DNA from: Escherichia phage vB_Eco_T-01
Sequence record: PQ438391.1
Strand: one strand, 5' to 3'
DNA length: 64,000 bases
Shown one piece after another: positions 12,536-13,298 of the stretch; the first letter of the stretch is position 1, and each line of letters begins with the position of its first letter. The position numbers and the translations under genes are program-made. The notes under the pieces were generated by a model. That model searched no databases and had not been told where the DNA came from. It saw nothing but the letters and a program-made list of their open reading frames with translations.

Positions 12536-12549
12536 ATTAGCCTCTGTAG

Positions 12550-12557
12550 TATTTATA
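12550..12557 (-). promoter_or_regulatory. late promoter TATAAATA (gene 19)
   Basis: exact match on minus strand just upstream of gene 19. Confidence 0.7.
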
Positions 12558-12608
12558 TCCCTATGTTTAACCTAGGGCATATAGAATTAAAGAATTAAGG
12601 ATATAGTG

Positions 12609-12616
12609 TATTTATA
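12609..12616 (-). promoter_or_regulatory. second TATAAATA copy upstream of gene 19
   Basis: exact match on minus strand directly after the HNH gene hairpin; duplicated 'gt(a/g)gtatttatat' context. Confidence 0.5.
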
Positions 12617-12642
12617 TGGCCTGCCGAAACAGGCCTTTAGAA

Positions 12643-13293
12643 TCATTCTAGTAAATCCCAAAGATCTACACTATTTCTTTTTGATTTTTCTCGGTTAGAT
12701 TCCCAAGTGATTATTTCTAAATTATTAATACCGCCAATTATTTTAGCAGGAATTAAATTATCAAAACCGTATTTGATAGATACCTTATGATCAAGTTGGT
12801 AAGCACCTTTTGTACCACACACTCCTATTTTATCAGCATTTGGCCATTTTGACCAAATTTTCTTATGCTTACGAGTTTCTTTATATACCAATGAAATATA
12901 TTCACGCATTTCAGATTTATTTGGGTTCCATCTTGGATGATTTACGCCATGCATACATTCTACTGTTTTTCCTTTATTCGCGGAACCATATGAATTATTG
13001 CGCATTTTATCTTTATGACGGCAATCACGACAAATATCAGTGTTTCTTCCAATGCGTTGGTTATATTCAATTCCACATTTATCGCAACGGCATTTTACAT
13101 ACGCGGTACTACCTTTAATGTCTTCAACTTTAACATCAATTTCATAATACCTAAATCCATGTTTAACCGCTCCAAGAGGTGTTAATTTATAACTCTTTGA
13201 TTGATAATGTTTAAAATTTGATGGTACAATTTTCACTTTAATAAATTTAGAAATAATCACTTGATTCCTCGAGAATAGGGGCCGAAGCCCCAT
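12643..13293 (-). CDS. free-standing HNH homing endonuclease with Cys-rich N-terminal region
   Basis: HNH-like 'QLDHKVS...NNLEIITWESN'; Cys cluster 'CRCDKCG...CRDCRH'; sits between genes 18 and 19; alternative SD-preceded GTG start at 13260. Confidence 0.7.
   Translation of the reverse strand: MGLRPLFSRNQVIISKFIKVKIVPSNFKHYQSKSYKLTPLGAVKHGFRYYEIDVKVEDIKGSTAYVKCRCDKCGIEYNQRIGRNTDICRDCRHKDKMRNNSYGSANKGKTVECMHGVNHPRWNPNKSEMREYISLVYKETRKHKKIWSKWPNADKIGVCGTKGAYQLDHKVSIKYGFDNLIPAKIIGGINNLEIITWESNREKSKRNSVDLWDLLE
13277..13290 (-). terminator. UUCG-tetraloop hairpin after gene 18, abutting HNH ATG
   Basis: GGGGCttcgGCCCC immediately 3' of ATG 13293 on minus strand; weak U-tract. Confidence 0.5.
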
Positions 13294-13298
13294 ATCAA

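Follow-up and report, generated by a model that had tools for sequence, protein, structure and literature searches.

An optional ORF19.1-family gene between the tail sheath and tail tube genes of Escherichia phage vB_Eco_T-01, probably a free-standing homing endonuclease

In Escherichia phage vB_Eco_T-01, the genes for the tail sheath (gene 18) and the tail tube (gene 19) are separated by an additional open reading frame (ORF). We analyzed a stretch of 64,000 nucleotides from this phage (sequence record PQ438391.1), referred to here as the window, which includes the tail and head late genes of a T4-like phage in the minus-strand order gp17, gp18, extra ORF, gp19, gp20. The spacer between genes 18 and 19 measures 763 nt in the window versus 116 nt in T4, in agreement with the initial annotation, which had described a 205- or 216-aa ORF at a junction that is short in T4; the positions it gave for the ORF, its ATG and GTG codons, the Shine-Dalgarno (SD) sequence, the hairpin and two promoter octamers were all found to be correct on the minus strand. 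T-even phages serve as the model for free-standing homing endonucleases, whose catalogue of seg, mob and hef genes is usually treated as known. We conclude that the insert is probably a free-standing homing-endonuclease-type gene of the ORF19.1 family. This is an ordinary kind of element, and the initial annotation identified it correctly while drawing two side-inferences that proved wrong.

The nearest public genomes at this locus are Shigella phage KRT47 and coliphages RB3, RB5-RB10 and HP3, with 99% identity over 1.8 kb. Alignment of the junctions in the window, RB3, T6, T4, T2 and Yersinia phage fPS-2 showed a compact cassette, consisting of 5 nt, a UUCG hairpin, an SD sequence and a 205-aa ORF with a GTG start, placed between the gene 18 stop codon and a hairpin resident in the spacer and optional in near-identical phages. 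The left edge is the first base past the gene 18 TAA (13301-13299), where gene 18 homology stops, and the right edge is the TG of the TGA stop codon of the ORF, 7 nt ahead of the resident hairpin. Neither target-site duplication nor terminal repeats were found at the insert junctions in this alignment, and transposition was therefore ruled out as the route of insertion. Presence and absence were counted in records at least 95% identical in the flanks. The window-type allele occurs in 47 of 689 phage records matching the flanks and the T6-type allele, with exactly the same junctions, in 70 of 689; the remaining close relatives (~400), including T4, T2, RB27, RB51 and RB55, are empty at this site, with a spacer of 116 nt. 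The ORF19.1 insert is lacking from about 78% of close relatives, and the family is found in about a fifth of sequenced Tequatrovirus genomes. The sharp edges and the abundance of empty-site alleles bear out the proposal of an optional insert and go against the refuting case named in the initial annotation, in which every relative would have the ORF; the gene is present or absent at one identical site in close genomes, as is characteristic of a free-standing homing gene.

Judged by its sequence relationships, the ORF is a real gene, because it matches PHROG 5104 (1.4e-89; a group with no assigned function), has homologues at 1e-136 and was located by tblastn at 246 places in 245 phage records. 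With good support, we infer that its product is a two-module nuclease. Residues are numbered here in the 205-aa form, from the GTG start. The N-terminal cysteine cluster mentioned in the initial annotation is present as a zinc ribbon, C59-x2-C62...C77-x2-C80, with its Cys codons at 13086-13021; C59, C62 and C77 are invariant in 35-36 family members, while C80 varies among relatives (CxxH in P0030-P0033). The zinc-ribbon domain probably binds DNA. Toward the C-terminus lies an HNH-like core, D157 H158 ... N180-L181 ... N189 ... K192, coded at 12792-12685, whose residues are invariant in 35 close relatives and whose five catalytic-type residues are also invariant in 44 distant ones. An AlphaFold model built from the family alignment had a mean pLDDT of 86, and in it D-H ends a strand (154-158), N180-L181 opens a second strand (181-185) and N189 lies on a helix (186-192). 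The predicted fold is thus the beta-beta-alpha fold of the HNH superfamily, and the sequence has the expected residues, namely a His general base after Asp, a structural Asn and a helix Asn/His metal ligand. D157 and N189 are the likely metal ligands and H158 the likely general base. The predicted domain order is an N-terminal zinc ribbon, a short NUMOD3-like linker and a C-terminal beta-beta-alpha-metal (HNH-type) unit.

Profile libraries did not recognize this module. No curated HNH profile (Pfam HNH, HNH_2-5) matched the whole protein or the isolated C-terminal module, and no nuclease family in Pfam or NCBIfam scored above threshold when the complete protein, its C-terminal module or any of 36 family members was scanned; relatives gave only sub-threshold Pfam matches (HNH_4 0.078, HNH_5 0.22, HNH 0.003) and nothing in NCBIfam. 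A weak match resembling DUF4379 (treble-clef) was obtained in 11 of 36 members (8e-4), and the match to a NUMOD3-like linker was also weak. Searches of PDB sequences with phmmer and profiles returned zinc-finger noise only, and Foldseek found no match in PDB. The best structural matches of ORF19.1 were 4h9d and 5h0o, small stand-alone HNH nicking endonucleases, with modest scores. The HNH-like core of the initial annotation is accordingly retained because of its motif and predicted beta-beta-alpha fold, with modest structural scores and with no Pfam HNH model or other curated profile to match it.

The closest known relatives are T6 ORF19.1 and RB3_165, which share the family, the locus and the GTG start with the window gene, RB3_165 being 99% identical to it. 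The gene had initially been described as typical of seg/mob-type cassettes; a free-standing homing endonuclease remains the best reading, but membership of either family was not borne out. Lacking a GIY-YIG domain, ORF19.1 is not a Seg protein; no such domain was detected in Pfam, and its structural matches are to HNH enzymes. The T4 MobA-E genes resemble it in being free-standing, of HNH type, optional and located between essential conserved genes. Mob proteins, however, have an HNH_3 domain at the N-terminus along with a C-terminal DNA-binding region, whereas the HNH-like module of ORF19.1 is C-terminal, and this reversed order, together with the lack of any HNH_3 match in Pfam or detectable Mob similarity, separates ORF19.1 from Mob. 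The tblastn search also found essentially one ORF19.1 place per record, and no second nuclease gene was picked up. A free-standing T-even endonuclease that is neither seg nor mob, Hef of phage U5 (Sandegren et al. 2005), has demonstrated activity (PMC2988022), and Hef-type enzymes have been placed in a Vsr-like family (PMC3239194). ORF19.1 matches HNH folds and is set apart from the Vsr-like Hef on this description; no Hef label was found within the first 50 kb of the Acj9 RefSeq annotation.

The family is large: the full profile search returned 6084 cluster representatives with E <= 1e-3, 1341 of them reaching E <= 1e-10. Close relatives measure ~200 aa; among the distant ones are fragments of modules and fusions. 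Across 44 distant members, the partner of the C-terminal module is NUMOD3, CapR, a helix-turn-helix module of one of several kinds, or a DUF7487 repeat domain. These phage proteins, likewise uncharacterized, share the nuclease module of ORF19.1, with the consensus GAYQLDH..S.KYGF...IP..IG...NL...PW..N..K, and differ from it in their N-terminal DNA-binding modules, such as the repeated 'RYGVxxxMQS' units of DUF7487. A nuclease combined with variable DNA-binding beads is typical of homing endonucleases (PMC2988022, PMC10448857), and by this analogy the distant relatives have the usual homing endonuclease build.

The gene neighborhood of ORF19.1 homologues was opened in eleven lineages, and in ten of them the homologue lies directly after gene 18. 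These are Tequatrovirus, Jiaodavirus PKO111, Winklervirus CHI14, Dhakavirus Bp7, a VR26-like lineage, Hadassahvirus AbTZA1, Vibrio phage vB_VmeM-32 and Aeromonas phage AS-zj (Emmerichvirinae), a metagenomic lineage (L028, L029) and Sinorhizobium phiM12, where the next gene is not gp19. In the eleventh, Campylobacter phage CP21, fragments of the sheath gene flank a 388-aa protein that shares the C-terminal module (hhalign probability 98.5%), the upstream fragment matching Phage_sheath_1 and the downstream one Phage_sheath_1C. Gene 18 is the constant partner across lineages and therefore the likely target gene. The insertion point itself differs between genera, and in the VR26-like locus L022 the gene is found at the gene 19-proximal end of the spacer; such shifts within the spacer would follow if the gene came to rest in whatever permissive non-coding DNA was nearest. 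In CP21 (L032, 1-3985) the sheath gene is annotated in four fragments, and three more genes annotated as 'putative homing endonuclease' follow; the break in the sheath gene could be an intron, a fractured gene or an artefact of the assembly or the annotation.

As a homing endonuclease, the protein would nick or cut insert-free genomes in or beside the 3' end of gene 18. The simplest cleavage point would span the site of insertion, so that the insert would disrupt it; during repair from a co-infecting, insert-bearing genome, the cassette would then be copied along with gene 18 markers that lie nearby. The flanks of four insert-bearing and eight empty Tequatrovirus loci were compared over 780 nt upstream and 600 nt downstream. 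No flank position in this range separated the two groups as an immunity marker would, and their sole constant difference was the insertion point, which makes a recognition site spanning GGTTAA/TACGGTGC/ATTCTAAAGG the simplest inference from the sequence. The flank also shows a patch of synonymous differences in the gene 18 3' end, located 48-87 nt from the insert and bordered by near-identical sequence. The T4-type patch is present in 3-4 of 120 insert-bearing records versus about 250 of about 370 empty ones, counts that were not controlled for shared ancestry, and this strong association of patch and insert fits co-conversion or close linkage. A third, T6-type haplotype of the patch changes one residue (T to Q). 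The patch was also considered as the sole cleavage target, but the few recombinants (sb1, sb3 and Ec_YwIITB1), which have the insert alongside a T4-type patch, argue against this.

The N-terminal part of the protein exists in two classes, A (RB3 type, as in the window) and B (T6 type). At the DNA level the window and T6 are ~97-100% identical through gene 18, the hairpin and the SD sequence, 35-60% identical over about 13240-12880, and 78-100% identical from the final 230 nt of the ORF onward. The T6 allele thus shares the junctions, hairpin and SD sequence of the window, and its protein is 86% identical to the window protein over residues 129-205 versus 22% over residues 13-128, the N-terminal 115 residues that make up its class B cassette. 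Four more A/B pairs from other lineages gave 22-31% identity in the middle of the protein versus 85-94% at the C-terminus, and one of these pairs, L028 and L029, was confirmed in the DNA at the same locus of another phage lineage. Each cassette is closest to cassettes of its own class from other lineages, while the HNH end tracks the local lineage. The pattern suggests that recombination has replaced the N-terminal module repeatedly, with crossovers expected in the conserved 5' end and the HNH-coding segment. If the two classes differ in target specificity, A and B alleles could attack and replace each other, the repair crossover being resolved in the shared HNH-coding segment. We offer only tentatively, and regard as doubtful, the broader proposal that ORF19.1 is a large unrecognized HNH homing branch that tracks the sheath gene from Tevenvirinae to phiM12 to Campylobacter, in which A and B have been swapped in at least five lineage pairs, differ in target and replace one another.

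Other explanations of the insert were weighed. The one that survives best, although we consider it unlikely, is a vertically inherited, dispensable accessory nuclease of the tail and packaging block that does not home, its patchy distribution being due to loss and ordinary recombination; such a protein could degrade competitor or host DNA, or aid the terminase as do HNH proteins of HK97-like phages. The gene is always beside gene 18, two genes from the terminase gp17 and one from the portal gp20, even in very distant phages, and was never found at another locus (246 places in 245 records). Its best structural matches, 4h9d and 5h0o, are stand-alone HNH nicking enzymes, and the GVE2 enzyme (5h0o) reportedly works together with its terminase. 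HNH genes adjoining terminases can be packaging factors (PMC10448857). However, ~78% of close relatives, T4 and T2 among them, are fully viable without the gene, and the insert has sharp edges and carries its own hairpin and SD sequence. T4 terminase, moreover, has its own nuclease. Relatives also bear the DNA-binding modules of homing endonucleases, and the CP21 homologue appears to interrupt the sheath gene, which is the arrangement of a selfish element.

Somewhat less probable still is a decayed or inactive relic of a homing endonuclease, retained as harmless like the defunct I-TevIII of T4. The failure of every nuclease model to match the protein, its weak GTG start and the lack of a promoter of its own would agree with decay, and among the nearly identical Tequatrovirus alleles (1-3 synonymous versus 1-2 non-synonymous codon changes) selection is not measurable. 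Conservation speaks against a relic: D-H...N...N...K is kept in all 35 close and 44 distant relatives, as are the ribbon cysteines C59, C62 and C77, the family extends to the thousands of cluster representatives given above, and no frameshifted copies were seen among the inspected loci. A sequence-specific DNA- or RNA-binding regulator of the late tail genes that has lost catalysis is very improbable, since its zinc ribbon, NUMOD3-like linker and position between two highly expressed late genes, beside their promoters, are outweighed by the invariance of the catalytic-type residues and by the absence of the gene from most relatives, in which the gene 19 promoters are identical.

Table 1. Positions of the insert, its parts and the neighboring elements in the window
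Feature	Coordinates	Strand	Remarks
Insert relative to T4/T2/fPS-2, 655 nt in place of the 8-nt TACGGTGC	12644..13298	-	Junction alignment; empty spacers of 8 phages
ORF19.1-family CDS from GTG 13260, 205 aa + stop; putative free-standing HNH endonuclease	12643..13260	-	
Variable N-terminal cassette, class A; beta-rich domain with zinc ribbon	12880..13240	-	Sliding identity, window versus T6
C-terminal nuclease module (predicted), residues 129-205	12646..12876	-	86% identical to T6 allele
Upstream in-frame extension, 11 codons from ATG 13293-13291; contains the hairpin and the SD of the GTG	13261..13293	-	Probably untranslated
C(UUCG)G tetraloop hairpin GGGGCUUCGGCCCC (GGGGC-UUCG-GCCCC)	13278..13291	-	Part of insert; absent from empty sites
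Shine-Dalgarno GAGGA, 5-nt spacer to GTG 13260	13266..13270	-	Identical in RB3, T6
Gene 18 (tail sheath, 659 aa)	13299..15278	-	Upstream neighbor; candidate target gene
Synonymous-difference patch, gene 18 3' end, codons ARSINYITLNFVA	13347..13386	-	11/39 nt, T4 type versus window type
Gene 18 late promoter TATAAATA	15307..15314	-	Nearest late promoter upstream on strand; likely read-through source
Resident hairpin GGCCUGU-UUCG-GCAGGCC	12618..12635	-	7 nt past ORF stop; unchanged in empty sites
First late-promoter octamer TATAAATA	12609..12616	-	Resident, same in empty sites
Hairpin CCCUA...UAGGG	12577-12559	-	Precedes second octamer
Second late-promoter octamer TATAAATA	12550..12557	-	Resident; fPS-2 annotation: late promoter of gene 19
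Gene 19 (tail tube, 163 aa)	12044..12535	-	Downstream neighbor of ORF19.1

The coordinates of the insert and the surrounding elements are collected in Table 1. Read from the ATG, the ORF covers 12643..13293 on the minus strand (216 aa). As initially described, this ATG is separated from the gene 18 stop by 5 nt (TTGAT), adjoins the hairpin and has no SD sequence; its G is paired within the hairpin. The GTG, for which a good SD sequence had been noted, is the likely start of ORF19.1, and the extension from the ATG is probably not translated. The homologue in PKO111 has AAGGAA ahead of its GTG. The GTG start may keep expression of ORF19.1 low.

The initial annotation had also proposed that translation is controlled by the hairpin, and this was not supported. 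The hairpin begins 7 nt past the gene 18 stop, has a folding energy of about -11.7 kcal/mol with its flanks, and ends 7 nt before the SD sequence, so that it covers only the probably unused ATG. No significant structure hiding the SD sequence or the GTG was found; the single pairing that involves the SD sequence is weak, and the region folds like its shuffles (z = -0.32). Mob proteins rely on upstream promoters and RNA structures near the start (PMC2988022), and the window resembles Aeh1 mobE and I-TevI in having a stable hairpin just upstream of a (here putative) homing endonuclease ORF. It differs from both in that the hairpin is free of late promoters and pairs with neither the SD sequence nor the GTG, and the sequestration of the ribosome-binding site seen in these systems was not found. 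A late promoter within the hairpin has been described for Aeh1 mobE (PMC2988022) and for metagenomic endonuclease genes (PMC2677866), and the AbTZA1 homologue is alike. In AbTZA1 (L009, about 2450-2500), CHI14 (L010) and Bp7 (L011), the last two just upstream of 2501, TATAAATA directly precedes the start of the ORF19.1 homologue, and the AbTZA1 octamer lies within a 17-bp hairpin similar to the Aeh1 mobE control element, which is absent from the Tequatrovirus cassette.

No late promoter TATAAATA was found within the cassette, nor on the minus strand between 15307 and 12616, and ORF19.1 is therefore probably transcribed late through read-through from the gene 18 promoter at 15314-15307. A near-consensus late octamer, TATAAATT, is present within gene 18 at 13370-13377 on the minus strand, 71-78 nt before its stop. 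Every insert-bearing locus examined has it, as do half of the empty loci, and the T4-type haplotype lacks it; the idea that it serves ORF19.1 as a private late promoter was set aside, since it departs from the exact consensus and occurs in empty-site phages too. All T4-type spacers examined, gene-bearing or not, have a stable hairpin directly after gene 18. The insert hairpin is not followed by a U-tract and was not listed in the intrinsic-terminator scan. Rather than being a switch at the ribosome-binding site, it may take the place of the resident hairpin behind gene 18 and act in RNA 3'-end formation, stability or attenuation; on the simplest reading, the cassette would bring the gene 18 message a replacement 3' hairpin that may also attenuate read-through.

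The pair of late-promoter octamers at 12550 and 12609, whose positions were given correctly in the initial annotation, had been taken as an insertion footprint, but the same pair is present in phages with empty sites. The 108 nt before gene 19, which hold both octamers and both hairpins, are identical in the empty T4, T2 and fPS-2 and in the insert-bearing RB3, T6 and window. Four of five further empty-site loci have the same 108 nt, and the fifth (L016) has two changes, in the second hairpin. The empty spacer of L017 keeps both hairpins with an exact octamer only at the first position, and the more distant T4-like empty spacers L018 and L019 have a hairpin followed by TATAAATA two times. On these sequence comparisons the tandem hairpin-octamer layout is ancestral to the 18-19 spacer, and the insert landed upstream of it. 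In the whole window TATAAATA occurs 22 times versus 9.8 expected.

Several observations were made on nearby genes and on the database records. The ORF list opens gene 20 (portal; window 10386-11972, minus strand) at a TTG four codons before the methionine of MKFNVLSLF..., the annotated T4-type start; this TTG is an artefact of the ORF caller and no feature. In Bp7 (L011) an 'HNH endonuclease' is annotated at 3769-4350 between gp19 and a split gp20. The gene has a NUMOD3-like stretch, adjoins a portal gene annotated in two pieces, and its only Pfam match is sub-threshold, to a SegE-type GIY-YIG domain (E 0.0046); it is Seg-like and probably wrongly annotated. The metagenomic T4-like loci L028 (1619-2191) and L029 (1908-2480) have a second optional gene of 190 aa with a NUMOD3 motif between gp19 and gp20, and L028 also has an HNH_3 gene after gp68, so by sequence the late tail and head block of this lineage carries several endonuclease-like inserts. 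Two records with unexpected host names contain the Tequatrovirus 18-19.1-19 region: MG010123.1 ('Staphylococcus phage SAJK-IND', 32 kb) at 98% DNA identity, and PV654520.1 ('Pseudomonas phage vB_PSGBLB0006'), which matches at the protein level as a T6-type allele. These labels are probably due to contamination or mislabelled deposits.

The gene has been in GenBank since 1994 as T6 ORF19.1 and is mostly labelled 'hypothetical', occasionally 'homing endonuclease', 'HNH endonuclease' or 'type II restriction endonuclease'. No experimental work on ORF19.1 was found in the literature, where the names ORF19.1 and gp19.1 matched only Candida genes. For this window the outcome is mostly a correct but ordinary annotation result. 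As far as we have seen, what is new about the family is its association with gene 18 in the T4-type phages, a nuclease module that profile libraries lack and the exchangeable N-terminal cassettes. Recognizing the ORF19.1 family would improve annotation, since most copies are still labelled hypothetical. The RB3-type and T6-type alleles form a natural pair that differs only in the putative specificity module and is suited to tests of target change and competition. If the reading of ORF19.1 as a homing endonuclease is true, the tail sheath gene would join the list of essential genes targeted by selfish nucleases.

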